From positions 1-57,412 of the forward strand of contig JAOQAO010000265.1 in assembly GCA_025963485.1 (NCBI GenBank): 57,412 nucleotides of DNA, given 5' to 3'. The translations under genes and the position numbers were made by a program. Position 1 is the first letter of the stretch, and the number at the start of each line of letters is the position of its first letter. Source of the stretch: Bacteroidota bacterium (GTDB lineage Bacteria; Bacteroidota; Bacteroidia; Chitinophagales; LD1). Below are positions 17,218-48,811 of this stretch, piece by piece. Below the pieces are notes generated by a model. The model saw only the letters and a list, made by a program, of their open reading frames with translations. It did not search any database and had not been told where the DNA came from.

Positions 17218-17292
17218 CGGGGTGTAGCGCAGCCCGGTTAGCGCACCTGCTTTGGGAGCAGGGGGTCCCAAGTTCGAATCTTGGTACCCCGA
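17218..17292 (+). tRNA. tRNA-Pro(TGG); island integration target
   Basis: CGGGGTG/TACCCCG acceptor stem, cctgc-ttTGGga-gcagg anticodon arm, GTTCGAATC T-loop. Confidence 0.96.
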
Positions 17293-17294
17293 CA
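17246..17294 (+). repeat. attL core (49-bp direct repeat)
   Basis: cctgctttgggagcagggggtcccaagttcgaatcttggtaccccgaca, identical at 48403-48451. Confidence 0.95.
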
Positions 17295-17401: not shown

Positions 17402-17641
17402 TTATTCTCTTTCCAGTTCTTCTTCGCTTTCGCGCTCGTTTTCTGCCTGGGGCCCCTCAAGTTCCGCGAGGCGCTGCTTTTCCTTCTCCTTTTCCCATTG
17501 CTCAGCCCCGGCCAGGACGCCGCTGTCGTAGTCCTTATCCTGCGAAAGGCTCTCCTTGAGCTTTTCGAACAGGTCGGGCGAATACCTCGCGAGCTTGTAG
17601 CCATCGTTAAAACCCTTCACGTAATTCGGTTCTTGTTCCAT
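17402..17641 (-). CDS. Hypothetical acidic protein coupled to the excisionase-like gene
   Basis: 79 aa; start overlaps the stop of 17641-17925. Confidence 0.75.
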   Translation of the reverse strand: MEQEPNYVKGFNDGYKLARYSPDLFEKLKESLSQDKDYDSGVLAGAEQWEKEKEKQRLAELEGPQAENERESEEELERE

Positions 17642-17925
17642 CAGAATGTTTTTTGCGCGTTCCGTTCGAGGAAATCCAAGATGGAATCCCGATCATATAA
17701 AATTACTTTGTGGCTCAACCTGGAGAATCCGATATCCCCGGCGTCACGGTACTCCTGGAGCGTCGTGCGCGAGGTTATCTTGAGCATGGCCATCGCCTCT
17801 TCTATGTCTATCCATTTGTTCACCTTTGGCAGCCCGTGCTTCGCGTCTATGTGAGCGACCACCTCGTCTATGAGCGCATAGAACGCCGACGTCTTTATGC
17901 AGATTACATCATCCTTAGGTGCCAT
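17641..17925 (-). CDS. Helix-turn-helix DNA-binding protein, excisionase-like
   Basis: WIDIEEAMAMLKITSRTTLQEYRDAGDIGFS...ILY winged-HTH pattern; at the island end. Confidence 0.85.
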   Translation of the reverse strand: MAPKDDVICIKTSAFYALIDEVVAHIDAKHGLPKVNKWIDIEEAMAMLKITSRTTLQEYRDAGDIGFSRLSHKVILYDRDSILDFLERNAQKTF

Positions 17926-18550: not shown

Positions 18551-19459
18551 TTATTCAATTATTCGAGAAATAATCTGTTTTACGACTGGCACACTTACCG
18601 CATTGCCCAAACATTTATACCTCTGTCCATCGCTGATACGTTTTGTATTTCCATTTTCATCCACGCCTCTTTCAGTCCAGCCATCAGGGAACCCCTGCAG
18701 CCGCTCACATTCGAGGGGTGTAAGTCGGCGTAATCTGCCATCAGATGCGGGTGTGAACACCTCCCCACGGGTAGTCAGGGTATGTGAAAGCCCCTTTGCG
18801 ACCCTTCCACGCCTGTACTTTGAGTTTGGGAATGAGATATCAACCCCATCACCTACAGCAGCTACAGCATAGCCGACTGATGTGGCTTCGCGCACTGCTA
18901 CAACAGGGTGGCCCTGTACAATATCCTTCGCCCTCGTCTCTCGGATAGGAAATACTTCGGGTCTGTACGTGCCTCTAATATTTCCAACAATGTAGACCCG
19001 CTGCCTGTTTTGGGCAAGCCCGAAATTCTTGCTGTCAAGCACCTGCCACTGTAGGTCATACCCCAATTCGTCAAGCGTACTGATGACTGTAGCAAAGGTT
19101 TTCCCTTCGTTGTGACTGAGAAGCCCTTTGACGTTTTCAAGCAACAGAAAGCGAGGCCGGCAGTGTTCGACAATCCTTGCGATCTCAAAAAAGAGATTTC
19201 CTCTGCTGTCATTGAATCCCTTTCTTTTGCCAGCAATGGAAAACGCCTGACAAGGAAATCCTCCGACCAGGAGATCAAAGGCTGGCAGGTCTTCGGGTTT
19301 GATTTTGGTAACGTCGCCATAGTTTTTGTGGTCCGGGAAATGGGAGCGATAAATGGAAATGGCGTAAGGGTCAATCTCGGAATACCCGATACACCGAGCC
19401 CTTTTGCCTATGCCCCTCTCAAAGCCCCCAATACCGGAGAATAGAGATAAGTAAGTCAC
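18551..19459 (-). CDS. DNA (cytosine-5)-methyltransferase, orphan
   Basis: LFSGIGG, GGFPCQ, ENV, QNRQRVY, RLTPLECERLQGFP and GNAV motifs; no adjacent restriction endonuclease recognised. Confidence 0.93.
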   Translation of the reverse strand: MTYLSLFSGIGGFERGIGKRARCIGYSEIDPYAISIYRSHFPDHKNYGDVTKIKPEDLPAFDLLVGGFPCQAFSIAGKRKGFNDSRGNLFFEIARIVEHCRPRFLLLENVKGLLSHNEGKTFATVISTLDELGYDLQWQVLDSKNFGLAQNRQRVYIVGNIRGTYRPEVFPIRETRAKDIVQGHPVVAVREATSVGYAVAAVGDGVDISFPNSKYRRGRVAKGLSHTLTTRGEVFTPASDGRLRRLTPLECERLQGFPDGWTERGVDENGNTKRISDGQRYKCLGNAVSVPVVKQIISRIIE

Positions 19460-19496
19460 ATGATTAAAGAACTAAGCTGATAATCTCGGAAAGCCT

Positions 19497-20669
19497 CTAA
19501 GGCGGGTCCTTGTCAGCCCCATGCACGATGCTGATGCCGCTAAACGGCTTGCTCGGCACGCCGTCTATCATCAGCTTCAAGAAGATGGAGTAGTTAGGCA
19601 AATTGATGAAATCCTCGACCTTAAAGGCTGGGTACATCTCGCGCGAGAGTATCTGCGCGTCCTCGGTACCGACCCGAAACGATATGAGGGTACCCGCGTT
19701 GCCGAGTATCGCCCTGCGCACATCGTCATCCATCTGATGCAGGTATTGGTTGGCGAGTATCAGACCTACTTTGAATTTGCGAAGCTCAGAGAACATGCCC
19801 ATGAGTGACTGCGTAGTGAAATTGTGGAACTCGTCCATGTAGACCATGAAAGGCACCCGCAATTCTTCCGCCGTATCTACTCGGCTAAATGCTGCGGAAT
19901 TAATCGAGCTGATGAACAATGCACCGAGCAGGTGCGCCACGTCCTCACCCACATGACCTTTCGAGAGATTGACCAAAATGATCTTCTTCTCATCCATAGC
20001 CTTTCTCAAATACACCTCCTCGGTGTTTTCTACTAGAACCCGCTTTATCACCGAGTGCGCGAGCATCCCGCCGAACTTGTTAAGTACGGGCAGCAGGTCA
20101 AACCTCGTATAGAATGGAAACTCCCGATCCCAAAAGAGGTTTACGCTCGGGTTTTCTACGTGGGATATACAACTGCGTCTAAAGGTCTTGTCCAATAGCA
20201 GCTTTGGAATATCAGCCAGAGTAGCAGAGGGCTGGTCTAAGAGGGTCAAAATGGAATAGCGTAATATATGCTCCAACTTAACGCCCCACGCGTCTGACCA
20301 CAGTTTCTTGAATACATCCAAGATACTCGATGCTACAAGTGACCGTTTCTCGTAAGTCACTTTCTTGAATGGGTTGTACCTAAGAGTAAGAGCCGGGTTC
20401 GGTATGTCAAAATAAATAACGTCATCCTTACGCTCAGCCGGTATAGATTGATATATGCCCTCTACTAGATCGCTATGCGGGTCCAATATGCAGGCACCCC
20501 GGCCCGCGTAAACGTCCTGCAAGAACATGGTCTTAATCATCGTGGACTTTCCGGTGCCTGTCTTTCCCACGATGTAGGTATGCATCAGGCGGTCCTTCTG
20601 CCAGATGCCGAAAGGAGTGCCGGCATTTCTAAAGTCCGTCTTCGCAAAGTATGTGATGTCAGTTTTCAT
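19497..20669 (-). CDS. TraG/TrwB/VirD4-like ATPase without a membrane anchor
   Basis: Walker A GKTGTGKS, Walker B YMDEFHNF, SELRKF..GLILANQ and GNAGTLISFRVG motifs. Confidence 0.85.
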   Translation of the reverse strand: MKTDITYFAKTDFRNAGTPFGIWQKDRLMHTYIVGKTGTGKSTMIKTMFLQDVYAGRGACILDPHSDLVEGIYQSIPAERKDDVIYFDIPNPALTLRYNPFKKVTYEKRSLVASSILDVFKKLWSDAWGVKLEHILRYSILTLLDQPSATLADIPKLLLDKTFRRSCISHVENPSVNLFWDREFPFYTRFDLLPVLNKFGGMLAHSVIKRVLVENTEEVYLRKAMDEKKIILVNLSKGHVGEDVAHLLGALFISSINSAAFSRVDTAEELRVPFMVYMDEFHNFTTQSLMGMFSELRKFKVGLILANQYLHQMDDDVRRAILGNAGTLISFRVGTEDAQILSREMYPAFKVEDFINLPNYSIFLKLMIDGVPSKPFSGISIVHGADKDPP

Positions 20670-20862
20670 ACTGTCAGTGTTCCAAGAAACAGAGGCGCAG
20701 CATACTGAAGCAAAATCTCCATCACAACAAATTGACGTAGGGTATTCAAGCGATAAAACAGTAGTGAGTTTTTGTTGCTAGAAACAAATAGCCTGCATTT
20801 AATACGGCCTTCGTAGTTGCTAGCCTTTATCTGGGAATATTCCTTCACAAAAAAATATCATC

Positions 20863-21741
20863 ATGGAAGCAACGGAGAAAAAAGACGTCTATGCAATCGC
20901 TACGGAGAGAATCATCGCACACCTCGAAAACGGTACTATTCCTTGGCGCAAGCCCTGGACGGATGCCGGCATACCGATGAACTTTGTCTCCCGCAAGCCC
21001 TATCGTGGCATCAACCTACTGCTCCTGAACCTTTGCGGATATACGCGCAACCTCTTTCTGACATTCAAGCAGATTAAGGCGCTCAAAGGGACGGTCAGGA
21101 AGAACGAAAAGGCCCATCCCGTGCTCTTTTGGAAGTGGGTCAAAAAGGATGCAAAGGACAAAAGACCGGTCAGCGAACTGACGACGAAAGACCTGAGGCC
21201 GATACTGCGCTACTACATGGTCTTTAACGTCGAGCAATGCGCTAACCTGCCGGACGCGCTTGTCCCTGACATCAGAAAGCCAAACGAGCCGCTTCTTGAA
21301 TGCGAGGCGGTGCTCGATGGGATGCCGTCACCGCCGAAGATCGTTCACGAGCTTCACAGGGCCTGCTACTATCCCGCAAGCGATACGATCAACATGCCGA
21401 GGATCGAGACGTTCACGAGCAGCGAGACCTACTACGGGACCCTCTTTCACGAGCTTGTGCATAGCACCGGACATGTAACCCGGCTTAACCGCAAGGAACT
21501 TATGGAAAACAACTCGTTTGGGTCTGCTGACTATTCTCTCGAGGAGCTGACCGCCGAAATTGGAGCGAGCTACCTTTCCTCGCATACCGGCATTATGATT
21601 GACGACTATGCAGGCAATGCCGCGTATATACAGGGATGGCTTGCTGTGCTCAAAAACGACAAAAGGTTCATCGTCTATGCGAGCGCACAGGCGCAAAGGG
21701 CCGTCGAACACGTCTTAAACCTTGGGCTATCATCGGAATGA
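20863..21741 (+). CDS. ardC: ArdC family antirestriction protein (ssDNA-binding plus zincin-like domain)
   Basis: PWRKPW, YRGIN, TFKQ, VFNVEQ, HELVHSTGH, YSLEELTAE and AYIQGW motifs. Confidence 0.92.
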   Translation: MEATEKKDVYAIATERIIAHLENGTIPWRKPWTDAGIPMNFVSRKPYRGINLLLLNLCGYTRNLFLTFKQIKALKGTVRKNEKAHPVLFWKWVKKDAKDKRPVSELTTKDLRPILRYYMVFNVEQCANLPDALVPDIRKPNEPLLECEAVLDGMPSPPKIVHELHRACYYPASDTINMPRIETFTSSETYYGTLFHELVHSTGHVTRLNRKELMENNSFGSADYSLEELTAEIGASYLSSHTGIMIDDYAGNAAYIQGWLAVLKNDKRFIVYASAQAQRAVEHVLNLGLSSE

Positions 21742-21750
21742 TCTTCCGAC

Positions 21751-21771
21751 AACCGCAGCAATGCGGTTTTT
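21751..21771 (+). terminator. Rho-independent terminator after ardC
   Basis: aaccgca-gcaa-tgcggtt followed by Ts. Confidence 0.7.
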
Positions 21772-21869
21772 ATCTTAGATAAATTCTATACTCCGGTGCT
21801 GCTTCTCAGATACATCCTCGGACTATCCGGCATCAGTTTAACTTTTCTTTATTCCAGTCTGTTAGGGTA

Positions 21870-22139
21870 ATGGGTATGAATGCTATATCCCGAAAACGAC
21901 TTTCCCGCGCTTTGGAAATACTGGCGCAAATAAAAACGCTCGATTCCGAGCTTATGTCAATTCTCACATCTGAAATTAAGGGGCCGTCACGCACTTCGTC
22001 AGCTTTCTCAAAAGCAGTAAGCAAGTGGGCAGGGTGTTTTAACGAGGATGCTTCGGCAATCTTTACGCTTATCCTGGCCCAGCGATTGCGACGTCAGCAG
22101 ACCGATACCCAGGACAATTTGTTTGCTACAGACAATTAG
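21870..22139 (+). CDS. Hypothetical protein or gene fragment
   Basis: 89-aa ORF between ardC and a recombinase; no recognised motif. Confidence 0.35.
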   Translation: MGMNAISRKRLSRALEILAQIKTLDSELMSILTSEIKGPSRTSSAFSKAVSKWAGCFNEDASAIFTLILAQRLRRQQTDTQDNLFATDN

Positions 22140-22180
22140 CTCCAGTGTTATGCCGCGAGCCATAAGTATATGCTTTGGGA

Positions 22181-23119
22181 ATGGCAGCACTCAAAGACGA
22201 TTTTGAAAACTACATCAACGAATGCACCTACGGCAAAAGATTACGCCCCGCTACCATCAAGGCATCTAAGGAAGCATACAGGCAATTTGCGCGTGTAGTT
22301 CCCGAGATAGAAACATCGGAAGATGTTACACCCGCAGTCCTCACGGTATTTTTCCAGCGGCTCCAAACCCGTGAGCGTACCGTGGGGCGAGATACCAAGG
22401 TAACAGGTATTAAGGACGTCACGATCCGAGCGTATGCGGGCAGGCTAAAAACGTTTTTCAAATGGCTGAAAGACCGCAAGCACATTTCAGATAATCCGTT
22501 TGACACCTTCAAGATACCCACTCCGCAATTTACAGATCACCGGGCGCTCACGGGTGATGAAATTAAGCGGATCATGGGATGTATAGTGCAGCATTCAGGT
22601 TCGACCTTCATCATGAGGCGTGACTTGGCAATGATCGGCATACTGACATTCTGCGGCCTCCGCCGGACTGAGCTGATATCCCTCGAAATGAGGGACGTGG
22701 ATATAGAAGCGGGATTCATAACAGTGCGTAGTGAGACTTCAAAATCAAAGCGCACCCGTAGGCTTCCGATCAATATATTCCTAAGGCCTTACCTAAAGGA
22801 ATACATCGAAGTAAGAAAGCAACGAAAGTGTAAGGCGATCAGGTTCTTTGTGTCCCAAGGTAAAGATCGCGATCTCACTCTACATGGACTGAAACATTGG
22901 GTAGAGAGGATAGTAAAAAAGTCAGGTGTGCGCTTCCATCTACACAGGTTACGTCACACATTTGCTACAAACTTAGGTATTCAAGGTGTTGGGGCCATCA
23001 AAATACAAAAGCTCATGGGTCACTCAGATTTGAGAATGACACAAATGTATCTACGATCTATAGAGGCAGAGGAATTATCAGAGGACATGAATAAGATATC
23101 GTTTGAAAATCTCGCTTAG
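22181..23119 (+). CDS. Tyrosine recombinase (XerC/D-like)
   Basis: GLRRTE, KSKRTR, HRLRHTF and MGHSDLRMTQMY: complete R-K-H-R-H-Y set. Confidence 0.93.
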   Translation: MAALKDDFENYINECTYGKRLRPATIKASKEAYRQFARVVPEIETSEDVTPAVLTVFFQRLQTRERTVGRDTKVTGIKDVTIRAYAGRLKTFFKWLKDRKHISDNPFDTFKIPTPQFTDHRALTGDEIKRIMGCIVQHSGSTFIMRRDLAMIGILTFCGLRRTELISLEMRDVDIEAGFITVRSETSKSKRTRRLPINIFLRPYLKEYIEVRKQRKCKAIRFFVSQGKDRDLTLHGLKHWVERIVKKSGVRFHLHRLRHTFATNLGIQGVGAIKIQKLMGHSDLRMTQMYLRSIEAEELSEDMNKISFENLA

Positions 23120-23121
23120 GC

Positions 23122-23595
23122 TTATTTGAACTTAGCATCTCTCCATATGTATTCTAAAACCGGAAATTTTAGGTATTCAGTAGAAAACTCGTCCCAGCTC
23201 TTTCCAAACTTGGTTTTTGCAACATACCTTACCGAGTGATTGTCATATATGCTCTGAGTAAAAGCAGTATCGGCACCTTTGGCTTTATAATCCTCTAGCA
23301 GTTTCTTCATGATATTCATCTCATCGAGCAATCTATCTACGTCACCGTATGTACTAAGAATAAAATCTATAGATGTCCTGATAAAGAGAAACTTTCCTAT
23401 CCGATTACTTACGCTTAGACCAGGCTCTTGAAGATAATGTCTCATTAAAACTATGCGATCCCTCGTCTGGTGGGTCACAATGTCAAATCCGGGCGCTAGT
23501 GCAAATACGTGTGAAAGAATCTCGTCACTAATTTCTGGCTCTTGGCCTTGCAGCCAGTTCAGGAAAATATTAGTTAATCCGTCAAGGTATTCCAT
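23122..23595 (-). CDS. Hypothetical protein
   Basis: 157-aa ORF, convergent on the first recombinase. Confidence 0.65.
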   Translation of the reverse strand: MEYLDGLTNIFLNWLQGQEPEISDEILSHVFALAPGFDIVTHQTRDRIVLMRHYLQEPGLSVSNRIGKFLFIRTSIDFILSTYGDVDRLLDEMNIMKKLLEDYKAKGADTAFTQSIYDNHSVRYVAKTKFGKSWDEFSTEYLKFPVLEYIWRDAKFK

Positions 23596-23905
23596 TGTCT
23601 ATTCTTGCATTTGAGAGCAAGTCATGTAAGAATAATTAAGTCTGATTACATTAACAACTTAACAACCACGCTATTTTTTTGAGCTTCTCCAACGGAAGTA
23701 ATCAGGCCGCTTCAAGGGCAATCTAAAACAGGCTAAAATCTCATTTCATCCTTAATTACCAACGCATTTATCGAAATACGTTACGGGTAAATTATTTGTA
23801 AACGTAAGGCCCATTCTTATTGTTACAAATATGCTTATGCCATAAGGGCGGATGAATAAAATTGAAGCCAAAGGGACGTATGCTCTGCATAATCTGTCCC
23901 TATTT

Positions 23906-23978
23906 GCCATTGTAGCTCAGTTGGCAGAGCAACGGTTTTGTAAACCGTAGGTCATCGGTTCGACCCCGATCAATGGCT
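23906..23978 (+). tRNA. tRNA-Thr(TGT), island-borne
   Basis: GCCATTG/CAATGGC acceptor stem, TAGCTCAGTTGGCAGAGC D-arm, acggt-ttTGTaa-accgt, GGTTCGACCCC T-arm. Confidence 0.92.
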
Positions 23979-24011
23979 CATTAAGATAGCGTGGTTATCT
24001 CACCACACTAT

Positions 24012-24917
24012 ATGGATATAGAATTACTAGCCCGTAGATTTTATGACTACTACCTTTTAGAGCGCCGACTTTCGATACATACCGTCAGGTGCATTAGAGG
24101 ACATCTGAATTACTATAGAAAGTTCTCCGGCTTTACCGCGATTGAGCAAGTGACTGAAAAGAGCATCCAGGAGTTCTTCGTGTTTGGCCGCGTCACAAGG
24201 AACTGGAAGCCACATTCGACTATTAGGTGCTACCAGTCGCTTACTGTCTTTTTCAGATGGTGTCATAAGCAAGGCTACATTGGGTCAAATCCTTTGCCTC
24301 ATATAGAACTGCCAAAGCCTGATAAACAACTTCCGAGAGGTGTAGTAAAGCAGGATGCTCTAAAGATTTTGGAGATTGCGTATAACTATCCTTATAAATC
24401 GGAGTTTCTACGGTGCAGGAACCATGCGATCTTCGCCATGTTCATCCATACTGGGCTTCGAAAAAGCGAGTTGCTGAACTTGAAGTATACCGACGTAGAC
24501 ACCGAAAACCTTACGGTCTTTGTGACCAGGGGCAAGGGTGCAAAGGACAGGATAGTACCAATGAGCTACACGCTGGCCCAATCTCTCAAAAGATATTTGG
24601 TAGAGCGAAAAAAGCTCAACAAGACATGCTCCCACTTCTTTGCTTCGCTTCTGCTCAACAAGGCTTTCACGGACACAGGCATAAGACGATTGGTAACTAA
24701 GATTTCAAAAGCATCTGGTATCAAGTTCAGTTTGCACAAGCTCAGACACACGTTTGCCACACTCATGCTGGAGGGCGGATGCGATATTTACAGCCTGTCC
24801 CGCATGATGGGTCACTCGGATATCAAGACTACTACTATCTATCTCTCGGCTTCCGTGCAACATCTGAGATCACAAGTAAGCAAGCATCCTCTTAATGATC
24901 TTGTCAGATATGCGTAG
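24012..24917 (+). CDS. Tyrosine recombinase (XerC/D-like)
   Basis: GLRKSE, GKGAKDR, HKLRHTF and MGHSDIKTTTIY motifs. Confidence 0.94.
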   Translation: MDIELLARRFYDYYLLERRLSIHTVRCIRGHLNYYRKFSGFTAIEQVTEKSIQEFFVFGRVTRNWKPHSTIRCYQSLTVFFRWCHKQGYIGSNPLPHIELPKPDKQLPRGVVKQDALKILEIAYNYPYKSEFLRCRNHAIFAMFIHTGLRKSELLNLKYTDVDTENLTVFVTRGKGAKDRIVPMSYTLAQSLKRYLVERKKLNKTCSHFFASLLLNKAFTDTGIRRLVTKISKASGIKFSLHKLRHTFATLMLEGGCDIYSLSRMMGHSDIKTTTIYLSASVQHLRSQVSKHPLNDLVRYA

Positions 24918-24921
24918 CATC

Positions 24922-25002
24922 TTCTTTCATGTTTCTTGGGTGGAAACACTTTTCCATACATCAATACGGAAAGGTGTTTTTTGCTTGGGAAACATGAAAG
25001 AA
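24922..25002. repeat. Long imperfect inverted repeat
   Basis: Perfect 14-bp outer arms ttctttcatgtttc/gaaacatgaaagaa; inner aaacacttttcc/ggaaaggtgttt. Confidence 0.8.
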
Positions 25003-25139
25003 CGTTGCTTAGCTCACAGCGGGTCAGGTTACCACTCGGTAAAAATTTGTTGATTTCAACAAAAAGTATTTGTTTTTATTTTACCCTCGATAATTACTAT
25101 AGATGATGGCAACTATCCATAACAAGGTTGCCCATCATT

Positions 25140-25475
25140 ATGCTCATTCAACATAATTTCTTGCGCATCGTCCGCAAGCGCACTCATCTCACTCAGGTAG
25201 ATATCGCTTCGATCCTGAAAATTTCAGACTTTGCCAATGTCTCACGGTGGGAACAGGGACAGAAAACGCCTAACGTCGAAATGCTCTTGGGATATCATTT
25301 GCTTTTTGACATCCCGATTGAATCCCTCTTTGACAGACAGAAGCACGAATTGAAACGGGCTATCATCCCGCGCATACAGGATCGGATCAGATACCTGAAA
25401 ACCCTCGATAGCGATCCCAAAGTGCAAAACCGTATCGATTATCTCGGGTCCATTCTTAGCAGAATAACCCTCTAA
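25140..25475 (+). CDS. XRE-family HTH protein
   Basis: LRIVRKRTHLTQVDIASIL...VSRWEQGQKTP. Confidence 0.88.
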   Translation: MLIQHNFLRIVRKRTHLTQVDIASILKISDFANVSRWEQGQKTPNVEMLLGYHLLFDIPIESLFDRQKHELKRAIIPRIQDRIRYLKTLDSDPKVQNRIDYLGSILSRITL

Positions 25476-25479
25476 TCCT

Positions 25480-25968
25480 ATGGAACATGAAAATCCAGTG
25501 ATCCTAGCACTCTATCCTAACTCCATTGGGATTGGGTATGCCTGCTTGCAAATACCTGACCGGCTACTCGACTTCGGTGTTGCTACTGCAAAGCCTATAT
25601 CCAATGGCAAGCTGCTTCGCCGCGCTGAAAGGTTCCTTAACTACTATAAGCCCAAGCTCGTACTGCTAAAGGAAACCAGCGAGTTGGCAAATAGCGGACG
25701 AAACGACAGGCTGATCAAGGCTATGACCACGCTCTGCGATGAAATGGGCCTCGACACCTACAGGTACACCAAACAGCAAATCAAGGACACCTTTGAAGTA
25801 TTTGGTGCCAAAACGAAATTTTCGATGGCTGAAAAAATGGTCAAGATGCTGCCCGACCTTGCCGTCCGAATGCCAAAGGTGCGCAAGTGGTATGAGAAAG
25901 AGGACTACAACATGGTAGTCTTCGATGCCGTGGCGCTCGCGGTAACGCATGCGCATCTGACGGAGTAG
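25480..25968 (+). CDS. RuvC/RNase H-fold protein with a degenerate active site
   Basis: VILALYPNSIGIGYA aligns with RuvC ILGIDPG..TGYG (D to Y); KPKLVLLKE; C-terminal FDAVALA. Confidence 0.6.
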   Translation: MEHENPVILALYPNSIGIGYACLQIPDRLLDFGVATAKPISNGKLLRRAERFLNYYKPKLVLLKETSELANSGRNDRLIKAMTTLCDEMGLDTYRYTKQQIKDTFEVFGAKTKFSMAEKMVKMLPDLAVRMPKVRKWYEKEDYNMVVFDAVALAVTHAHLTE

Positions 25969-26015: not shown

Positions 26016-26276
26016 TTATTTTCCCATTTGTTCAAAAAACTCGGATGCGGGCATGTCCAACGCATGCAGGACTTTCAAAAGGCTCGATACCTTTAGGTCC
26101 TGCCCTCTCTCATATCTGCCGTACTGAGTTCGTGGAATCTCGTTCTCAAAGGCAAATGTCTCATAGTTCTTATATCCTCGCTCTTTGCGCACCTCCTGCA
26201 GTTTTTTCCCGATGGACGCGAGGAGCGCCTTGATTTCGTCCTCCGGCAGAGGGCGTTTTTGGCTTTTCTTTTTCAT
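26016..26276 (-). CDS. XRE-family HTH transcriptional regulator
   Basis: IGKKLQEVRKERGY.NYETFA...IPRTQYGRYERG.DL. Confidence 0.88.
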   Translation of the reverse strand: MKKKSQKRPLPEDEIKALLASIGKKLQEVRKERGYKNYETFAFENEIPRTQYGRYERGQDLKVSSLLKVLHALDMPASEFFEQMGK

Positions 26277-26302
26277 CCAATAAAGCAACCGAGAATAGCA
26301 CT

Positions 26303-26352
26303 TAAATGGTACTCCCATTGTGTGGGTGCATATTAGCTACCATTTATAAGTG
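26303..26352. promoter_or_regulatory. Dyad in the divergent promoter region, candidate operator
   Basis: cacttaaatggta ... taccatttataagtg between the XRE gene and the T9SS gene. Confidence 0.35.
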
Positions 26353-26394
26353 ACTTTTTGTATTTTGCATCATTACAAACCAAAACCAAACACC

Positions 26395-28584
26395 ATGAAG
26401 TACCTACTGCTTTTTTCAATTTCACTATGGAGCATATGCTCGGTGGCTCAATACTGCGGCAACTCCGGGCCTGCGATCTGCAACCCCAATGGGTCTACCG
26501 CGCAGGGAATTTTCACGCCCTCATATCTGCAAATAGCCCCTCTTGCCAACGGCCAGAATGCGACAGTCAGCCTTCAGCTTATGATGCCCGATTCAATTTA
26601 TTTCGGGGGAACCAACAACTCGTATACTGACTTCACGATTGACAGCATTTCTAATCTTCCTCCTGGCATGTGCTGGTCTACCAATAAAGCACAAAATACG
26701 TTCTTACACCGTGAGCATGGCTGCATTGTACTAAGCGGTACACCGTGCGGTGCCAACGGCCAGTACAAACCGAGGATTTACGGCAGGTTCACCACGCCGT
26801 CGTTCTTTCTTTCACTCCTCGGGTTAAGCGGTGGTGATCTAGACGTCGTAGGATTCAAGTACATCCTCAGATTAAAGAACGCTACAGATCCCGTAACCCC
26901 ATTGGACACGACACAGACGGACAGCAACCCTGTCATACCTTACAACTCAGCGCCGGCTTGCTCAGCTGGCCTCTACTTAACTCCGCTTCGAGTTTCCTCG
27001 GATTCCGTCTGCGACGGCGGCAATGTCAGGGTAAGCATCCTTACCAACATCCCGTTTTCAAACGCCAATCGGTTTTCACTGAAAGTAACCTGTACGCAAA
27101 CGGGAACGTGCAACGGAGTTTGGTACTCGGATTCGATATACGCTCATCAAAGCGGCACTTACACGTTCTCCCTGCCTGACAGCATTACTAACTATGCCTT
27201 CGATTGCGCCGATCATGATGCGTTCAACCTATTCTTGGAAACTACTGACACAGCAACCGAAACACCGCTAGGGACGATAGTGATCTATGGTGCCCCAGCA
27301 GTGAGCTGGCTCCCATCGGGCGGGGTCATATGCGAGGGTAGCAGTCTACAACTCGGCGGACGTGCGCTATGCTCACAGTCTTACAAGTGGTATCAGGAAC
27401 CCGCGCATACGCTTATCTCATCCGCATCTCCTCCTTATACTATTTTGCCAACGCAAACGACCCACTACAGTGTGCATGTTACTCGGAACGTATGCTCACT
27501 GGACAGTAGCTTTACTGTTACCGTCGTGCCTAATCCAGTGTTTGCGCCATTTGATACTGTATTTGCGACCTGCCCTCATGACAGTGTGACGATAGGGCCA
27601 GCGAGTATTCATTATTTGGAATATGTGACTTGGAGCGACAACAACGGTTTCTTTGCTGTAGATTCTCAGGTGACCGTGCTGCCACCATTTTCAAACATCT
27701 ACACAGCCACCCTCTATGATAGCAATGCGTGTTGGGTTCAAAGTAGCGTGAGCGTTTCCATAAAGGAACCGCCTTATCAGGACATCTGCATGGTCACTGT
27801 GGATTCAATGTCAAATCACAACGTAATCATTTGGGAAAAGTATAATAAGCCCGCTATCGACAGCTTCTATATCTACCGCGAGATTAGCACGAATAACTAT
27901 GCAAAGATTGCGGCGGTTCACCGTGATTCTCTCAGCGAATACCACGACTACGGCGCGAACCCCAACAGTACCGGCTACAGGTACCGAATATCGGCGCTGG
28001 ATACATGCGGAAACGAAGGAGCTTCGAGCTTGTACCACAACTCTATACATCTACAATATCTCGGCGGTGGCAACCTCCAATGGAACAACTACGAAATAGA
28101 GTTTTCATCTACACCGGTGGCATCATATGATATCCTGCGGGACGATAATGGCACAGGGGCATGGTCGCAGATACTAAATGTGTCAGGAACGCAAAACACC
28201 GCTTCCGATCCCAACTTCACCTCCTATCCAAACGCTCGTTACAAGGTGATCGCCAACTGGCCGTTTAGCTGCACTCCAAGCCGCGCTTATCAGATGTCTT
28301 TGTCTAATGTCATTGCCAGCCAAGCGAACGGCATTCAAAGGATTGATGAAATGTCGTTTAGGATTACCCCAAACCCTACACGCGATTGGCTCCATATAGC
28401 CTTTCCTAAGTTGGTTAGCGGTTTTCTCACCGTGACCGATATCACTGGCAAGGAGCTTATCGTTACGGACATAAAGGCAAGCGTGAGCGAAACGATAGAT
28501 GCAAGGCGGCTACCTGCTGGAATATACATTGCCACATTCAAAAATGCGGATTGCACCTACTCACAAAAAGTTGTTAAGGAATAA
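26395..28584 (+). CDS. T9SS type A sorting domain protein with Ig-like domains
   Basis: Signal peptide ending AQ; Cys/Thr-rich beta domains; C-terminal ITPNPT..ITDITGK..LPAGIY..KVVKE. Confidence 0.88.
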   Translation: MKYLLLFSISLWSICSVAQYCGNSGPAICNPNGSTAQGIFTPSYLQIAPLANGQNATVSLQLMMPDSIYFGGTNNSYTDFTIDSISNLPPGMCWSTNKAQNTFLHREHGCIVLSGTPCGANGQYKPRIYGRFTTPSFFLSLLGLSGGDLDVVGFKYILRLKNATDPVTPLDTTQTDSNPVIPYNSAPACSAGLYLTPLRVSSDSVCDGGNVRVSILTNIPFSNANRFSLKVTCTQTGTCNGVWYSDSIYAHQSGTYTFSLPDSITNYAFDCADHDAFNLFLETTDTATETPLGTIVIYGAPAVSWLPSGGVICEGSSLQLGGRALCSQSYKWYQEPAHTLISSASPPYTILPTQTTHYSVHVTRNVCSLDSSFTVTVVPNPVFAPFDTVFATCPHDSVTIGPASIHYLEYVTWSDNNGFFAVDSQVTVLPPFSNIYTATLYDSNACWVQSSVSVSIKEPPYQDICMVTVDSMSNHNVIIWEKYNKPAIDSFYIYREISTNNYAKIAAVHRDSLSEYHDYGANPNSTGYRYRISALDTCGNEGASSLYHNSIHLQYLGGGNLQWNNYEIEFSSTPVASYDILRDDNGTGAWSQILNVSGTQNTASDPNFTSYPNARYKVIANWPFSCTPSRAYQMSLSNVIASQANGIQRIDEMSFRITPNPTRDWLHIAFPKLVSGFLTVTDITGKELIVTDIKASVSETIDARRLPAGIYIATFKNADCTYSQKVVKE

Positions 28585-28631
28585 TTGGCTGTTGGCTCTC
28601 CTGAACGAAATCCCGAACCGTGCAGACAAGC

Positions 28632-28783
28632 GCAAGGGTGCTGAAAAGCAAATCGCCGACCTATTGGGTTGCTGCGCCGATCATAAGTGAAACAGCCGGG
28701 CTAGGTCCCAAGCAATGCAGGCTGTTTCCTTATGCGAGGCGCAAAGGGTGGCAGGATGGCGATTTGCTTTTCAGCTCTCTTGC
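28632..28783. repeat. ~150-bp stem-loop (structured DNA/RNA candidate)
   Basis: Perfect 18-bp arms gctgaaaagcaaatcgcc (28640-28657)/ggcgatttgcttttcagc (28758-28775); inner cataagtgaaacagcc/ggctgtttccttatg. Confidence 0.8.
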
Positions 28784-29004
28784 ATCCCTGAGCGGAGGCG
28801 GCTTCGGAATGAGCCGTGCTGTTTGCGAATGGAGGAGCGGCCGGAGCGCGCCGGAGGGTTGCCGAAATTGTCAAGTCTCATACCCTTTTTTGGGTATAGG
28901 AATATCCCACAATTAGTTATTGATTTGCAGTGAAATATATATAGTTCTTTGTCTTACCTATGGATTTGTGTGCTGACCTTTTAATTCATCCACAAAACAA
29001 ACAA

Positions 29005-31494
29005 ATGAGAAAACTACTGTTCCTTTTGCTGCTGCTTATTGCTCAGCGAACATTCCTATCCGCCCAAGAAATCCCTTTGGACCTGATCGAGAGGGCGACC
29101 CACACCGACTATATTTTCGAGGGTATTGTCTTAAAGACCGAGCCGTACAAGACGCTGGACGAAAAAAATGTGTATACCTCCAACGTGATTCAGATCACCA
29201 AAATATTCAAGGGGGATCTGTCATGCGGCACTATTGAGCTGATTACTATCGGTGGCGCTCTGCCGGACGAGAACGTACACGGGTCGCACTGCCTCGAACT
29301 CAAGGAAGGAAGCCAGGGTATCTTCCTATGCAATGCCACGACGAAGGAACTGCCGGCAACCGCCGTTTATGCCTTCTCCCTGCCTGACAAGATGGAGGCG
29401 ACCTATGAGTGGCAGTCCTTCATCAAATACGTATTCGATGACGGAAGATGGCAGGCGGATGACCTCTTGAAGCGGTACGACAGCATCATCCAGCTTTATC
29501 ACCTCGCGGAGCTCATCACGCAAATCCAATACACGGATTGCGGTCAACAAAGTTTGGTCTTGCAGCCGCCAGCAATTCAGCCAATAGCCGTTCAGCCATA
29601 TCAGCCGAGGGCAATGCTTTCCTATAATGCCAATGATTTTGCAGATGCTAAAAGACGGTTAAGCTATAAGAGGGCGAATTTATCTAGGCCCAAGGCGGCA
29701 CGCTCCACGGAAACCTTGAATTTTCGGATTTCCAATGTCCAGGTCACGGGTACAAGTCCGAAATACCTTGAATATGATGTCAACGTCTTTGACCAGAGCA
29801 ATGTAAACCATTTCCTCAGCGATGCCACCATCCGCCTTGTGTATGATCCTGCGGTTTTTGGCTCCTACCTCGTCACGAATAACAAAATAACTGTAACGAA
29901 TGGTGCCTTGGCGAATTCAAGTTGCTATTTCTCGGTTTCGCCAAACGATGACAACCCGAGTACCATCAGCATGCTCCTCGGTGCTCACGACTATTCAATT
30001 TGTAAAAGTCCCATAACGGCATCCCCGCAACAGCTGGTGCATATAAGCATGGAAATCCAAACTTGCGGATTGAACTCCAAAGTAGCCATACAGGACACTT
30101 CTTTTTTTGGAAGTTCGGATATGGCCATCGGCTCTGGATATTCCCTCTCTTCGGGAGATTCGCTCTCAACCTCTTACGACCTGGTCACGACGGACAGCGT
30201 AAGCGTTCCGTCGTGCAAAGCCACGATCACGTCATTTGACCCGCCTGTGGTCAATGGCGGCGTAGGAGACATTCTCAGTATTCGCGGTTTCCAATTTGGC
30301 AGCGCAAGGGGCTCGGGAAATTTGTACTTTTACAACTCGAACCATCCCCAATCCGGCATGAGCAGCAGCTTGGATAACGTGGATTACCTTCTTTGGTCTG
30401 ATACGCTTATCCAAATCGTCGTTCCCTCCAAGGAGACTGGCGACACGGGCACCCTAGGCACAGGTACTTTCCGCATCGTCACTAACGCGAACGAAAAGGA
30501 CACCACCGCCAATCCGCTCACGGTCTATTACTCGGTGATAAACGAGATTTACACCGATAACACCGATAGCGCCAAGTCCAACTTCTTTCTCGAAAACCAG
30601 TCGGGTTCCGGCGGCTACTTCTTCCACGAGGACACCTCGGTATCCCACAATCCCGGAATAGCGGGGGTGGTGCGGAAGGCCATAAAGGACTGGGTCTGCG
30701 CGACGGGCGTTAACTTCACGATTGTCGGGGACACGACCGGGGTTCTGGGCAACCAGGACGACAGGGTAAACGTGGTCACCATGGGGCCGCAGAGCGGAAA
30801 CCACATAGCCACATGCTACTTCGTAGATGCCGGATGCATCAATCCGGTTACGCACAAGCTGGTCTGGCACCGCAGGGACATTGACGTTGTTATTTCCAAT
30901 ACGGCCGGCCTTGTCTACTTTACCGACACGACCGGCACGCTTCCCGTACCTTTTGGTCAGGTGGACCTGTATCACGTTCTTCTCCACGAACTCGGGCACG
31001 GGGTCGGACTTAACCACGTCATCGACTCGACCCTTATGATGTACTACCGCGTTCCCTCAATACCCACAGGCGGCCTATCGCCAGCCGGTCGCGTCGTCCA
31101 TCTTGCCGGGGACCTTTCCAGTGTCGACGGCGGTACTTGGGAGGTCGTGGCATCGCACTCCTCGTCCAACGTCTACCAGTGTGCGACCCCGATGTCGGCG
31201 GTAAGCGGCCTGCATTGTGAGTTTTCGACGTACATAGAGCCGATCACGCAGCCAAGTGACCTGAGACTATATCCCAACCCGTTCGACGGCAGGATTAATA
31301 TAGCATCGGGCTCGGAGATAGAGCAGATCAGCCTGACAGCGGTCGACGGAAAGGTGATCTATAACCGGGAAAATGTGATGCAGAAAAATACCTTTATCTT
31401 GGTATCCAATGAGCTCGCGGCAGGCGTCTATATCCTGAGCGTTCAAACAAAAGCTGGCGGGGTCACGCAAAAAATTGTCCATGTACAAAACTAG
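29005..31494 (+). CDS. T9SS-secreted metzincin (matrixin-like) metalloprotease with an IPT/TIG-like domain
   Basis: Signal peptide; HELGHGVGLNH plus Met-turn LMMY; ITSFDP...LSIRGFQFG..WSDTLI; C-terminal LYPNPF..GVYIL CTD. Confidence 0.88.
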   Translation: MRKLLFLLLLLIAQRTFLSAQEIPLDLIERATHTDYIFEGIVLKTEPYKTLDEKNVYTSNVIQITKIFKGDLSCGTIELITIGGALPDENVHGSHCLELKEGSQGIFLCNATTKELPATAVYAFSLPDKMEATYEWQSFIKYVFDDGRWQADDLLKRYDSIIQLYHLAELITQIQYTDCGQQSLVLQPPAIQPIAVQPYQPRAMLSYNANDFADAKRRLSYKRANLSRPKAARSTETLNFRISNVQVTGTSPKYLEYDVNVFDQSNVNHFLSDATIRLVYDPAVFGSYLVTNNKITVTNGALANSSCYFSVSPNDDNPSTISMLLGAHDYSICKSPITASPQQLVHISMEIQTCGLNSKVAIQDTSFFGSSDMAIGSGYSLSSGDSLSTSYDLVTTDSVSVPSCKATITSFDPPVVNGGVGDILSIRGFQFGSARGSGNLYFYNSNHPQSGMSSSLDNVDYLLWSDTLIQIVVPSKETGDTGTLGTGTFRIVTNANEKDTTANPLTVYYSVINEIYTDNTDSAKSNFFLENQSGSGGYFFHEDTSVSHNPGIAGVVRKAIKDWVCATGVNFTIVGDTTGVLGNQDDRVNVVTMGPQSGNHIATCYFVDAGCINPVTHKLVWHRRDIDVVISNTAGLVYFTDTTGTLPVPFGQVDLYHVLLHELGHGVGLNHVIDSTLMMYYRVPSIPTGGLSPAGRVVHLAGDLSSVDGGTWEVVASHSSSNVYQCATPMSAVSGLHCEFSTYIEPITQPSDLRLYPNPFDGRINIASGSEIEQISLTAVDGKVIYNRENVMQKNTFILVSNELAAGVYILSVQTKAGGVTQKIVHVQN

Positions 31495-32047
31495 CATCTT
31501 GCTTTTTTTGAATTGCCTGATTGCCGCGGCGTGTATGGCGCAGAAGCCCTATGCGATGCTGTGCGACTTGAAGCCCGTTGCTACCGGCAGGGATATGGAT
31601 GTTGTCTCAAGCGCCGGGTGCCTTGATTGCGATGCGGTCTTGCACGGACCTGACACTGCTACTGCCACTAGGCTAAAACGCAATAAGGAATGGATGTCCG
31701 CATACGATGCGCTAAAGGCGAAAGGGTGGCACTATGACAGCGCAAAAGCGTATCACATTGCCTCTGATAGCTTCCTGCGAGCCATCCGCTCCACGCATTA
31801 TTCCATCCTCCTTAACCGCCCTTACGCATCGCTCGGATTGGGCAAAGACCAAAACAGTTCCAGTCCTGAGTGCCAATTTTCATCAGAGGACGGAGTGATT
31901 GGCACTGTGCGGTTTCGCGTGGTATGTAGTGATTGCCCTTATTCCAAACGGAAAACTTTGTATTACATTTTTGCTTATGGGAAAAGCGGGATTGTCGTCA
32001 GGCACGGGCTGGCAGAATTAAAAAGTAGTCACAAACCCAAAAAATAG
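31475..32047 (+). CDS. Hypothetical exported protein
   Basis: Signal peptide ending MAQ; overlaps the protease stop; two CxxC pairs. Confidence 0.65.
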   Translation: MSMYKTSILLFLNCLIAAACMAQKPYAMLCDLKPVATGRDMDVVSSAGCLDCDAVLHGPDTATATRLKRNKEWMSAYDALKAKGWHYDSAKAYHIASDSFLRAIRSTHYSILLNRPYASLGLGKDQNSSSPECQFSSEDGVIGTVRFRVVCSDCPYSKRKTLYYIFAYGKSGIVVRHGLAELKSSHKPKK

Positions 32048-32053
32048 TTTCTC

Positions 32054-32084
32054 AGTGGTCACCTTCACAGAGGTGGCCACTTTT
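32054..32084 (+). repeat. Conserved hairpin, degenerate copy
   Basis: agtggtcacct-tcacag-aggtggccact-ttt; related to 35820 and 39016. Confidence 0.65.
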
Positions 32085-32104
32085 CTCACTTTTGAATAGA
32101 TAAA

Positions 32105-32671
32105 ATGAAATTATCATTGCTAATATCAGTCTGTCTGGCACTGTTTTCAAAGGGCAGCTTTGCGCAAACTCTGACCGTCGCACCAAACCCTTTTGTGCAC
32201 TCGGCAACCCTCCGGTTTGATTTGAATACGGCGGATACCACCTCTTTGTACATCGTGAACATAGTGGGCAGCACTGTAAGGACTTTCCTCCACGATACTG
32301 TTCTTTCTCCGGCACAGTATAGTTATACGCTTAGCGGAAATTCAATGGACGCAGGGGTTTACGTAATTGTCCTGCAAAGAAACAGTCAGCGCACCAATAC
32401 ACAATTGGTCAAGGCGTCTGATGCGACTGCCGTCAAAGACATTAACGAAAATACCAATTGGGAATTGTATCCTAACCCAGCTAAAGACAGGATTGGTTTT
32501 GATAAGGCACTTATTGGTTCTGAGATAAGCGTTTTTGATATGTCGGGTAGAAACCACGTGGTTGCCATAAGCCAGAACCAGATTGATATTTCATCCCTGC
32601 CCTTCGGGGTTTATTGTCTTCGCATTCAGAATATTGATGGCATCTTATTTAGAAAATTTACTAAAGATTAG
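32105..32671 (+). CDS. Small T9SS protein made of two CTD-like domains
   Basis: Signal peptide; VAPNPF..NIVG..AGVY..LVK, then LYPNPA..DMSGR..FGVY..KFTKD. Confidence 0.85.
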   Translation: MKLSLLISVCLALFSKGSFAQTLTVAPNPFVHSATLRFDLNTADTTSLYIVNIVGSTVRTFLHDTVLSPAQYSYTLSGNSMDAGVYVIVLQRNSQRTNTQLVKASDATAVKDINENTNWELYPNPAKDRIGFDKALIGSEISVFDMSGRNHVVAISQNQIDISSLPFGVYCLRIQNIDGILFRKFTKD

Positions 32672-32790: not shown

Positions 32791-32885
32791 TTTTTTATGA
32801 TTCAAGGTTACTCCTCATAGGGGCGAGTTCTTATTCTCTCCTGTTAAACAATTAAATCCCGACCTCATACGTCTTATTGAACTCC

Positions 32886-34094
32886 ATGAAAAACCTGAAC
32901 GTCATATCCGAGGACGAAAAAAAGTCCTTCGACCCGCTTCTCCAGAACATCATCGCCTACCGAAAGTCGGGATTGAGCCTCAATCACATCATTGGCTGCT
33001 CGCTCGACTGCGCGTACTGCGTCAGGCACTTCTTCGACAATTTTGAAATGAAGGAGCCGCAGATGCTTTGTAGTGACGAAGAAGCTGTAAACCAATTGGT
33101 CAATCATCAGTTCTTCATACCGAACGTGACACCCCTGCAATTATTCAATCGGGCAACCGATCCGTTTCTGACCGACGTAAAGAAGCACACGCACGAAGTC
33201 CTCAGGAGGCTCGACGGCATGGGTCTGACGAATCAGGTTCTTGTCATTACGCGGGCAAAAGTCACGAAGGAGGACATGGAGTTGCTGGAACAGCTAAAGA
33301 ACCTGCACGTATCACTTCTCGTAACCTATTCGGGAATTACCGACGTTAGGATAGAGCCCATTGCGAAGAATGGAATCACAGTACATTCGATAGAGACAAT
33401 CGCCCGATATAAGACGCGAACAAAGCTCATTCTCTATTGGCGTCCTATAGTGGTAGGATGGAATGACGACCCGGCCAGCTTTGAAAGGGTCTTTTGGATG
33501 GCGAGGTATGCGGATGCCATTGTCTATACGGGCTACTATCACCGACCTGAAAACCATGCCTACCTGAAAAGCATGGGCATACCAGTTCCTTACGGCGACT
33601 TTGCGCGTAGAAAGTTCCTACCCAACGAGCTTGAGAACAGGATTTTTGAGGCTTACAAGAACTCGGGGCTGACCGTACCCCTCTTTAGGAAAACGTCGTG
33701 CGGGGTGGCATACGCGCATAGGGTTCCCGATTACAACGGTCACTGGGGCGTCAATGAGCTGTGCGATATCTGTCCGAAGGAACAGAGAGACTTGTGCGAC
33801 AAAGGATACCAGGCACCCACCAGGGATGAGTTTCAAAAGCTTTTGGACGTGTATAATTACGATACTCCTTTTCTTATCGAGGATGGACACGTTTGGACTG
33901 AGGGTTTGGGAGAGGAACGACGCTACCACCTGCAACATACGCTTGGGTACCAGATATGGGACATTGAAAAGCCCCACTTCAAAAACCAGCACGGGCGCTC
34001 GCCATTCGGGCATGAGCAGACCAAGGAAAACGAGGCCTGGTATGAGGACATTAAAAGACAATTCACTAACGACATAAAGAAAGAAGATGACTGA
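32886..34094 (+). CDS. Radical SAM protein, spore photoproduct lyase/Rv2578c-like
   Basis: GCSLDCAYC (CxxxCxxC), ATDPF, RPIVVGWND; extra C-terminal Cys (KTSCG, CDICP..C). Confidence 0.88.
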   Translation: MKNLNVISEDEKKSFDPLLQNIIAYRKSGLSLNHIIGCSLDCAYCVRHFFDNFEMKEPQMLCSDEEAVNQLVNHQFFIPNVTPLQLFNRATDPFLTDVKKHTHEVLRRLDGMGLTNQVLVITRAKVTKEDMELLEQLKNLHVSLLVTYSGITDVRIEPIAKNGITVHSIETIARYKTRTKLILYWRPIVVGWNDDPASFERVFWMARYADAIVYTGYYHRPENHAYLKSMGIPVPYGDFARRKFLPNELENRIFEAYKNSGLTVPLFRKTSCGVAYAHRVPDYNGHWGVNELCDICPKEQRDLCDKGYQAPTRDEFQKLLDVYNYDTPFLIEDGHVWTEGLGEERRYHLQHTLGYQIWDIEKPHFKNQHGRSPFGHEQTKENEAWYEDIKRQFTNDIKKEDD

Positions 34095-34731: not shown

Positions 34732-34740
34732 AGAGAGAAA

Positions 34741-47018: not shown

Positions 47019-47045
47019 AAAAAAAACCGCATCATCTGCGGTTTT
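47019..47045. terminator. Bidirectional terminator at the integrase 3' end
   Basis: aaaaccgca-tcatc-tgcggtttt. Confidence 0.7.
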
Positions 47046-48402: not shown

Positions 48403-48451
48403 CCTGCTTTGGGAGCAGGGGGTCCCAAGTTCGAATCTTGGTACCCCGACA
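48403..48451 (+). repeat. attR core (3' half of tRNA-Pro)
   Basis: Identical to 17246-17294; lacks the 5' half of the tRNA. Confidence 0.95.
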
Positions 48452-48802: not shown

Positions 48803-48811
48803 TTGAAAATC

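Follow-up and report, generated by a model that had tools for sequence, protein, structure and literature searches.

Twin arm-less recombinases, a tRNA anticodon-loop site and a spare tRNA form a probable second integration kit in a mobilizable Bacteroidota island

Introduction

Two described strategies bear most closely on the DNA analyzed here. Canonical anticodon-centered tRNA islands, of the kind catalogued by Islander, carry in their attachment site (attP) a tRNA fragment that restores the gene they enter (PMC4383910), and actinobacteriophages such as Fionnbharth (Cluster L) follow a split-and-replace strategy known as tRNA-dependent lysogeny (PMC10865867). We analyzed a 57,412-nucleotide (nt) stretch of a Bacteroidota bacterium (assembly GCA_025963485.1, contig JAOQAO010000265.1), hereafter called the window. 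A 7.4-kb block within it (positions 18551-25968) probably carries a second, unused integration kit, consisting of the tyrosine recombinases IntA and IntB, an attP built on a tRNA anticodon loop and a replacement tRNA, inside a mobilizable island.

The kit shares with the phages a short core in a tRNA gene, a tRNA that is not rebuilt, both predicted for the window, and a spare copy carried by the element (PMC10865867). It differs in that the phages use one lambda-like arm-type integrase, whereas this locus has two arm-less recombinases and is not a phage; the core is about 10 bp in the phages and 7 bp here; and the site in the window is unused, the island having been inserted by another integrase (PMC10865867). 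As in canonical anticodon-centered islands, the predicted crossover lies at the anticodon loop, but this attP has the loop only (PMC4383910). Split-and-replace integration is already published for phages.

The recombinases resemble XerC/XerD and the "Cand" simple tyrosine recombinases in being two paralogous, arm-less enzymes of about 300 amino acids (aa) with relatives in candidate phyla; RIT elements have three adjacent tyrosine recombinases, versus two here (PMC8138268). Scores of IntA and IntB against curated XerC and XerD models are 114 to 177 bits, compared with cut-offs of 330 to 335, and unlike XerC/XerD they are island-borne with a tRNA-loop site, the host having two other Xer-like genes. 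The "Tyr duo" elements MTnPi1-3 are listed with short non-tRNA targets (PMC5704250). The literature searched contained no description of the IntA/IntB pair or of the accompanying backbone of ATPase, helix-turn-helix (HTH) and RuvC-fold genes; most subscription papers and supplements lie outside that coverage, and the PMC8138268 data sets may list them.

Results

The core between the recombinases matches the anticodon loop of the tRNA that the element carries

The earlier note on this DNA named the genes of the block from sequence, and all of them are present at the coordinates given here and below (Pfam, ARAGORN/Rfam and, for a 162-aa open reading frame [ORF], a fold match). Its inventory omitted the attP and a 157-aa cargo ORF, both of which lie between the recombinase genes:

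22175-23119, plus strand: IntA, tyrosine recombinase without arm-binding domain (PF00589)
23122-23595, minus strand: 157-aa cargo ORF between intA and attP (no family match; GC 0.39)
23642-23830, plus strand: predicted attP of the twin-recombinase system, with the 7-bp core TTTGTAA at 23795-23801 (covariation with tRNA)
23642, 23703, 23729 and 23806: CAGG-type motifs within the predicted attP
23906-23979, plus strand: element-borne tRNA-Thr(TGT) (ARAGORN; Rfam, 70.8 bits)
23991-24917, plus strand: IntB, tyrosine recombinase without arm-binding domain (PF00589; probable ATG start at 24012)

The core is identical to the anticodon loop of the adjacent tRNA-Thr(TGT), and the same correspondence between core and own tRNA holds in all 14 tRNA-bearing Bacteroidota loci, which represent five anticodons. 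All 10 Thr loci match (TGT, CGT or GGT), five with the core direct and five with it inverted, and so do all 4 Lys loci, where the aligned heptamer upstream of intB is the TTT or the CTT loop according to the element tRNA. Wrong Thr loops gave no match in 30 tests of the same search interval, and the background was 43 of 3696 intervals (1.2% each). A heptamer situated about 100 to 150 nt upstream of the element tRNA and tracking its anticodon had been predicted beforehand from the arrangement in Patescibacteria, described below, and was then found. Moreover, the anticodon-stem pairs of the element tRNA vary in concert between loci, a CAGG-type motif flanks the core in both Bacteroidota and Patescibacteria, and the loops of host-type tRNA-Thr(TGT) and tRNA-Thr(GGT) from the same genus match the cores. 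The variants across five anticodons suggest that specificity follows the 7-bp core. Relative to the window, the core is inverted in half of the Thr loci (L004, L019, L027, L028 and G005:C5), even between two sisters on the recombinase tree, and must therefore have flipped repeatedly.

The attP of the window is predicted to be intact and in its unused configuration. We considered whether the tRNA-Thr of the window is a chromosomal target that has already been used and rejected this candidate: this copy is part of the island, whereas the host-type gene of relatives is a different one at another location, with tRNA-Thr(TGT) first in a Thr-Tyr-Gly-Thr cluster. One locus, G095:C1, has no full tRNA between its recombinases; upstream of intB lies a sequence that, by eye, resembles the 3' half of a tRNA-Ile(GAT), which suggests a canonical restoring attP within the same family. 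The position taken by the 157-aa ORF is variable, with unrelated genes there in loci L001, L019 and L020.

Patescibacteria relatives of the recombinases split a host tRNA

At E 1e-45, IntB homologs occurred in 4 of 201 Patescibacteria genomes, with identities of 58, 54, 51 and 42%; viral contigs contained no close IntB relative, only distant matches. In three of these genomes (G530, G576 and G507; IntB 51 to 58% identical), a tRNA gene is split. The 5' half of the host tRNA-Thr ends at the loop and is followed by a spacer (about 130 to 145 nt in G530 and G576), the element tRNA-Thr (whole except in G507), intB, cargo and intA, after which come the anticodon loop again and the 3' half of the host tRNA. 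Joined at the 7-nt loop, the host halves are called as tRNA-Thr(GGT) in all three cases. The core is short and lies within the tRNA gene, and the tRNA is not rebuilt at the junctions. When circularized, this order reads intA, attP, tRNA, intB, which is the order in the window. The spare tRNA-Thr in G507:C7 (about 272400-272900), as read by eye, has its anticodon region interrupted by an insertion of about 200 nt, possibly an intron.

The twin recombinases proposed in the earlier note prove to be a conserved and co-inherited pair. IntA and IntB form separate clades (support, 0.986 and 0.98), each containing both phyla and with largely matching branching, and two tyrosine recombinases occur in every locus with both in view. 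The catalytic R, K, H and R are retained in 44 of 44 recombinase sequences and the tyrosine in 43; in the window copies, the catalytic residues are intact. As to a non-Bacteroidota link, which the earlier note had also raised, the closest such relatives found for the recombinases are in Patescibacteria, but no donor is established.

A 31-kb tRNA-Pro island encloses the block as its conserved middle

The block is enclosed by a larger island, bounded by an identical 49-nt repeat and carrying its own integration and mobilization genes:

17246-17294, plus strand: attL, the 3' part of tRNA-Pro(TGG) (tRNA at 17218-17293), a 49-nt repeat identical to 48403-48451
17402-17641: conserved 79-aa ORF after the excisionase gene
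17641-17925, minus strand: excisionase-type HTH_17 protein (PF12728, PHROG 66)
39164-40060, minus strand: relaxase (PF03432 above cut-off; MobP1 model match below its cut-off)
40057-40605, minus strand: MobC (PF21983, weak)
40602-42035, minus strand: canonical coupling protein, the second in the island (PF02534)
47044-48255, minus strand: arm-binding tyrosine integrase (PF17293, PF13102 and PF00589)
48403-48451, plus strand: attR, the identical 49-nt repeat

The lack of a relaxase reported in the earlier note is true of the 7.4 kb, but the 31-kb island has a relaxase, MobC and a coupling protein. Its suggestion of a stand-alone element is not supported: no terminal repeats of the block occur among the 20 largest direct-repeat families and the 25 longest inverted pairs, although short ends are possible, and the GC profile does not delimit it. 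The block is the conserved middle of the island and not a bounded element of its own. By gene content, the outer island classes as an integrative mobilizable element, with an integrase, att repeats and a relaxase and without a full mating pore; no mating-pore family was found among its main ORFs (Pfam, NCBIfam). Among 21 ORFs scanned with PHROGs there were no virion genes, the lone exception being a 39-residue terminase-family match on the ATPase P-loop.

The tRNA 3'-end repeat, arm-binding integrase, excisionase, relaxase and MobC are shared with the Bacteroidota mobilizable elements NBU1, NBU2 and Tn6031 (tRNA-Pro); the outer island differs from those in also carrying a coupling protein, the ATPase-HTH-RuvC-fold backbone and a second integration kit (PMC5704250). 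The pair formed by the excisionase gene and the 79-aa ORF recurs at other island ends.

Several features of the island and its surroundings were noted in passing. A third tRNA-Pro 3' fragment, 80% identical, lies 350 nt past attR (48755-48803) and is possibly an older insertion scar; the short ORF between them may encode a GIY-YIG-like nuclease. The cargo includes proteins with type IX secretion tails (26350-32671), among them a 744-aa protein also present in L001 at 68% and an 844-aa protein with paralogs on two other contigs, and a three-gene cluster at 32877-35316 (a weak radical-SAM-like ORF, a DEDDh exonuclease and an AAA_28 protein) that may be a defense cassette. Three related 50-nt hairpin-like repeats stand between cargo genes (32038, 35813 and 39009). 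Outside the island, a 1553-aa ORF (51026-55687) has collagen-like Gly-X-Y repeats. On other contigs, G000:C252 has a tRNA cluster with atypical tRNA-Thr, tRNA-Lys and tRNA-Pro copies, and G000:C168, cut by the contig end, starts with a second set of relaxase, MobC, coupling protein and excisionase near a tRNA-Gly.

A backbone of three genes recurs beside interchangeable recombinases

The remaining genes of the block, and one HTH gene just beyond it, are as follows:

18551-19459, minus strand: C5 cytosine methylase (PF00145, E 1e-78)
19497-20669, minus strand: 390-aa TrwB/VirD4-like ATPase, a backbone gene, divergent from the recombinase slot (PF10412 above cut-off)
20863-21741, plus strand: ArdC anti-restriction-type protein with both domains (PF08401 and PF18818)
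25128-25475, plus strand: XRE-type HTH protein, a backbone gene, 4 nt upstream of the RuvC-fold gene (PF01381, weak)
25480-25968, plus strand: 162-aa RuvC-fold protein, a backbone gene and predicted pseudo-nuclease (predicted fold; alignment to host RuvC)
26016-26318, minus strand: second small HTH protein (PF01381; 88% in L001, 67% in L020)

At E 1e-90, the ATPase matched 29 of 301 genomes of the order. A genome scan with it kept 80 of 159 loci: 37 at 65 to 93% identity, nearly all labelled Bacteroidota, and 43 at 36 to 46% identity, mostly labelled Patescibacteria. There were 71 distinct short-ATPase loci, of which the 52 with at least 8 kb upstream were analyzed and 19 dropped; the counts that follow are not independent, the loci having been gathered through the ATPase and many being related. 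Homologs of the block genes co-occur far above chance, and the neighborhood is a recurrent module: HTH is present in 38 of 52 loci, the RuvC-like gene in 35, and recombinase, HTH and RuvC-like gene together beside the ATPase, that is, all four backbone genes, in 32. The backbone order is conserved, also across families. The recombinase slot holds a large serine recombinase in 34 loci and the twin tyrosine recombinases in 13; 4 loci have no recombinase there, and in 1 a contig edge leaves a single recombinase visible. A two-recombinase system as the defining trait, the reading of the earlier note, is not supported. Nor is a core protective role for the methylase and ArdC: the methylase lies within 3 kb in 4 of 52 loci and ArdC occurs in 31, at varying positions. 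Methylase homologs (82 to 87%) are found in L001, L003 and L020, beside the ATPase only in the closest relatives. RadC was found in 12 of 52 loci and a RepO-like winged HTH (wHTH) protein, not in the window, in 20.

The Walker A lysine and Walker B DE are present in all 68 short ATPase homologs and intact in the window. The ATPase has no hydrophobic segment (maximum Kyte-Doolittle 19-mer, 1.43), and neither does the canonical coupling ORF of the island; it adjoins the recombinases and not the relaxase, with no adjacent membrane partner in the window. It shares a TrwB-type ATPase domain and Walker motifs with the type IV coupling proteins VirD4/TrwB, but their membrane anchor and relaxase linkage are absent. 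Its closest counterparts are the VirD4-like coupling proteins of Patescibacteria, 41 to 46% identical over the ATPase domain and usually away from a relaxase (PMC12102498). Those that we saw are mostly 510 to 780 aa and lie amid housekeeping genes, whereas the window ATPase is island-borne and 390 aa. On the ATPase tree, Bacteroidota and Patescibacteria sequences interleave, and we claim no donor from it. The ATPase is distant there from the island's own coupling protein, and clusters similar to it are commonest in Pseudomonadota. FtsK (PF01580) scores 16.5 bits on it, against a cut-off of 24. Since the ATPase stays beside whichever recombinase fills the slot and keeps its Walker residues, its predicted role is in recombination and not in mating.

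Two other element classes invite comparison. Actinomycete integrative and conjugative elements (AICEs) have a single DNA-pumping ATPase and no relaxase, and SCC/SCCmec elements have mid-element recombinases and a conserved gene set that includes RadC-like genes. Unlike these, the locus lacks an FtsK-family Tra that scores above cut-off, and a RepSA-type gene was not found in it; nor does it have an rlmH site, Ccr pair or Cch.

The 162-aa ORF had no match in Pfam, NCBIfam, PHROG or PADLOC. Its protein model (pLDDT, 88.5) aligns to bacterial RuvC structures in Foldseek with TM scores of 0.65 to 0.71. It shares an RNase H-like fold and length with RuvC resolvase, whose catalytic acids include a strand-1 Asp and a strand-4 Glu, but lacks these two: Tyr12 and Lys64 align to the corresponding residues of the host RuvC. 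The C-terminal Glu141 and Asp149 are conserved. At the first catalytic site, 18 of 21 Bacteroidota copies have Tyr or Phe, the other 3 not being parsed, and 27 of 34 distant homologs have Asp; the substitution is therefore old and maintained, and it fits a retained, non-cutting role. Unlike RuvC, the family has no Pfam match, is always in islands and usually stands behind an HTH gene, as do 26 of 35 distant RuvC-like genes. A predicted complex of the HTH and RuvC-fold proteins scored 0.01 and speaks neither for nor against an interaction.

Of 401 genomes of the phylum, 9 matched the RuvC-like profile. Protein clusters that matched it at E 1e-10 number 1,734, and the nearest Atlas clusters come most often from Bacteroidota, Pseudomonadota and Acidobacteriota; viral contigs contained no relative. 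Because the profile matched only 3 of 251 Patescibacteria genomes, one of them strongly but on a 2.4-kb contig, the backbone is rare in the Patescibacteria searched. ATPase, serine recombinase and RuvC-like frame occur together on a Sulfitobacter plasmid, and the RuvC-like gene is present in 4 Bradyrhizobium plasmid records, behind an HTH gene in the one record examined. Distant Bacteroidota (G152, G343 and G064; L114-L117) have a sister arrangement, in which the long ATPase and membrane protein described below stand beside an HTH gene and one or two RuvC-like genes. Soil and sediment contigs (L172-L251) pair HTH and RuvC-like genes with serine recombinase, Toprim primase, DUF932 and ParB genes, and some have two RuvC-like genes in tandem.

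As judged from substitution ratios, the tested block genes are under purifying selection. Ratios of nonsynonymous to synonymous substitution (dN/dS) were 0.045 to 0.12 for five genes between L008 and L011 (recombinases, 0.045 to 0.073) and 0.02 to 0.11 for the ATPase and methylase between the window and L001 and L020 (ATPase, 0.02 to 0.04); the overall range of 0.02 to 0.12 applies only where measurable, dS being saturated in the remaining window comparisons. The reading frames in the window are intact. A promoter scan gave 6 hits where chance alone predicts 7.8, and an Rfam search returned tRNAs only.

The backbone is carried by two types of island

One type of carrier, to which the window belongs, is inserted in a tRNA gene and has a relaxase, MobC and a coupling protein. 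The other splits comM and has a terminal serine recombinase, a 180-aa membrane protein and an ATPase of about 1020 aa (G003:C4, G006:C11, G005:C26, G446:C5 and G449:C20). Four comM islands have 115 listed ORFs, and the scan covered 92 of these once module genes and near-duplicates had been set aside; another 9 crossed a boundary or were too long. No relaxase, type IV secretion or Rep family was detected in the 92 ORFs at E 1e-6. A PF03432 genome search missed a relaxase in G003:C6 that a custom profile found, and the absence of a relaxase therefore rests on these ORF scans. A link between the N terminus of the approximately 1020-aa ATPase and the Patescibacteria membrane partner is weakly suggested (E 2e-4). 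The cargo of comM islands comprises defense and metal resistance genes (Thoeris-like TIR, CBASS/HORMA-like and restriction-modification). G446:C5 and G449:C20 have several scattered RepO-like wHTH copies upstream of the serine recombinase, which suggests repeated duplication.

Discussion

We propose that the outer integrase and excisionase would release the island as a 31-kb circle, whose relaxase and coupling protein would borrow the mating pore of a helper. ArdC may assist establishment in a restricting recipient, as the ArdC of R388 overcomes the recipient HsdRMS (PMC7213743). The circle could then insert at tRNA-Pro, or IntA and IntB could direct it into the loop of tRNA-Thr; on this second route the host gene would be split, and the tRNA that the element carries would likely replace it. 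XerC and XerD act together on the two halves of one site, and IntA and IntB may cooperate in the same manner. The weakest step, put forward tentatively, is that the other backbone proteins possibly work for the recombinases in the slot: the ATPase as a DNA motor, the HTH protein as a regulator or directionality factor and the RuvC-fold protein as a junction binder that does not cut.

Several observations weigh against this reading. None of the 16 Bacteroidota loci in which both genes are visible is integrated; each has intA before intB. Four of 5 carrier genomes have a host tRNA-Thr(TGT) without interruption, and in the fifth it is unbroken past the loop up to the contig end; it is absent from the assembly of the window's genome. 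Three twin-recombinase loci without a detected tRNA (G095, G857:C127 and G857:C94, the last with a partial intA of 105 aa) were left unscored, and the right core arm in the window deviates from the commonest motif. The fourth Patescibacteria match, G626, has a tRNA-Lys repeat of the ordinary kind, 49 nt long. The Patescibacteria elements showed none of the three backbone genes (ATPase, HTH, RuvC-like), and on that ground the recombinase kit and the backbone are separable. To these is added the nonindependence of the locus counts. Split sites in Patescibacteria, set against 0 of 16 integrated here, indicate that the kit worked in the former; in Bacteroidota, the pair appears to be maintained but parked.

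The lack of host-tRNA integration also speaks for an alternative that we consider unlikely but worth weighing, in which the Bacteroidota attP has as its partner the tRNA copy of another island or incoming circle, giving composite or tandem islands, or the system resolves circle dimers in Xer-like fashion with the ATPase as an FtsK-like activator. Some genomes have several copies of the module, including two that lie back to back, attP would find a perfect target in the spare tRNA, the core is inverted in half of the Thr loci, and a large insertion in the host Thr-Tyr-Gly-Thr cluster may be costly. However, no hybrid attL or attR was seen on an element-borne tRNA, a dimer-resolution site has no reason to follow a tRNA anticodon, and the ATPase is retained beside a serine recombinase, with FtsK scores under cut-off. 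Improbable, in our estimate, is a self-contained class of element that moves without a relaxase, its ATPase, which lacks transmembrane segments, pumping double-stranded DNA, and that is nested in an unrelated mobilizable island. Consistent with it are the backbone in comM-splitting islands that have a second ATPase and no relaxase family in 92 ORFs, the distance of the backbone ATPase from the island's own coupling protein and the frequency of similar ATPases in Pseudomonadota; but the block has no detected ends of its own, a relaxase lies 5 to 26 kb away in the window as in no fewer than 9 further loci, the ATPase has neither a membrane segment nor an adjoining membrane partner in the window, and islands without a relaxase may be mobilized in trans through an oriT.

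That the block is a decayed remnant, as the earlier note had allowed, or a chance cargo cluster carried by the outer island is very improbable and already largely refuted. The RuvC-fold protein does lack catalytic residues, some copies are broken or partial (stop codons and the intA piece in G857:C94), and 4 of 52 loci have no recombinase upstream. Nevertheless, the low dN/dS, the intact frames of the window, the gene order conserved across families and a core that tracks the anticodon of the tRNA all argue for maintenance, and the Tyr/Phe substitution is common to the Bacteroidota copies parsed. An extension of the unused-kit reading, which we regard as rather unlikely, would make the backbone a relaxase-independent, cross-phylum element engine with swappable kits, the twin kit being exchanged between Bacteroidota and Patescibacteria so that one circle has two targets, and the Bacteroidota RuvC-fold protein having been domesticated to bind junctions without cutting them and so to steer the recombinases.

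An unused kit of IntA, IntB, loop-only attP and replacement tRNA would extend split-and-replace tRNA integration from phages to an arm-less recombinase pair common to two phyla, and the pair might serve as a compact integrase that can be retargeted. Software that finds islands by requiring a restoring tRNA fragment and setting aside Xer-like proteins, as Islander does with Xer-class proteins (PMC4383910), may mis-map such elements. The backbone, for its part, points to a large unnamed RuvC-fold family, one lineage of which is without a catalytic residue that it once had, and to comM islands in which two coupling-type ATPases occur and no relaxase was detected.

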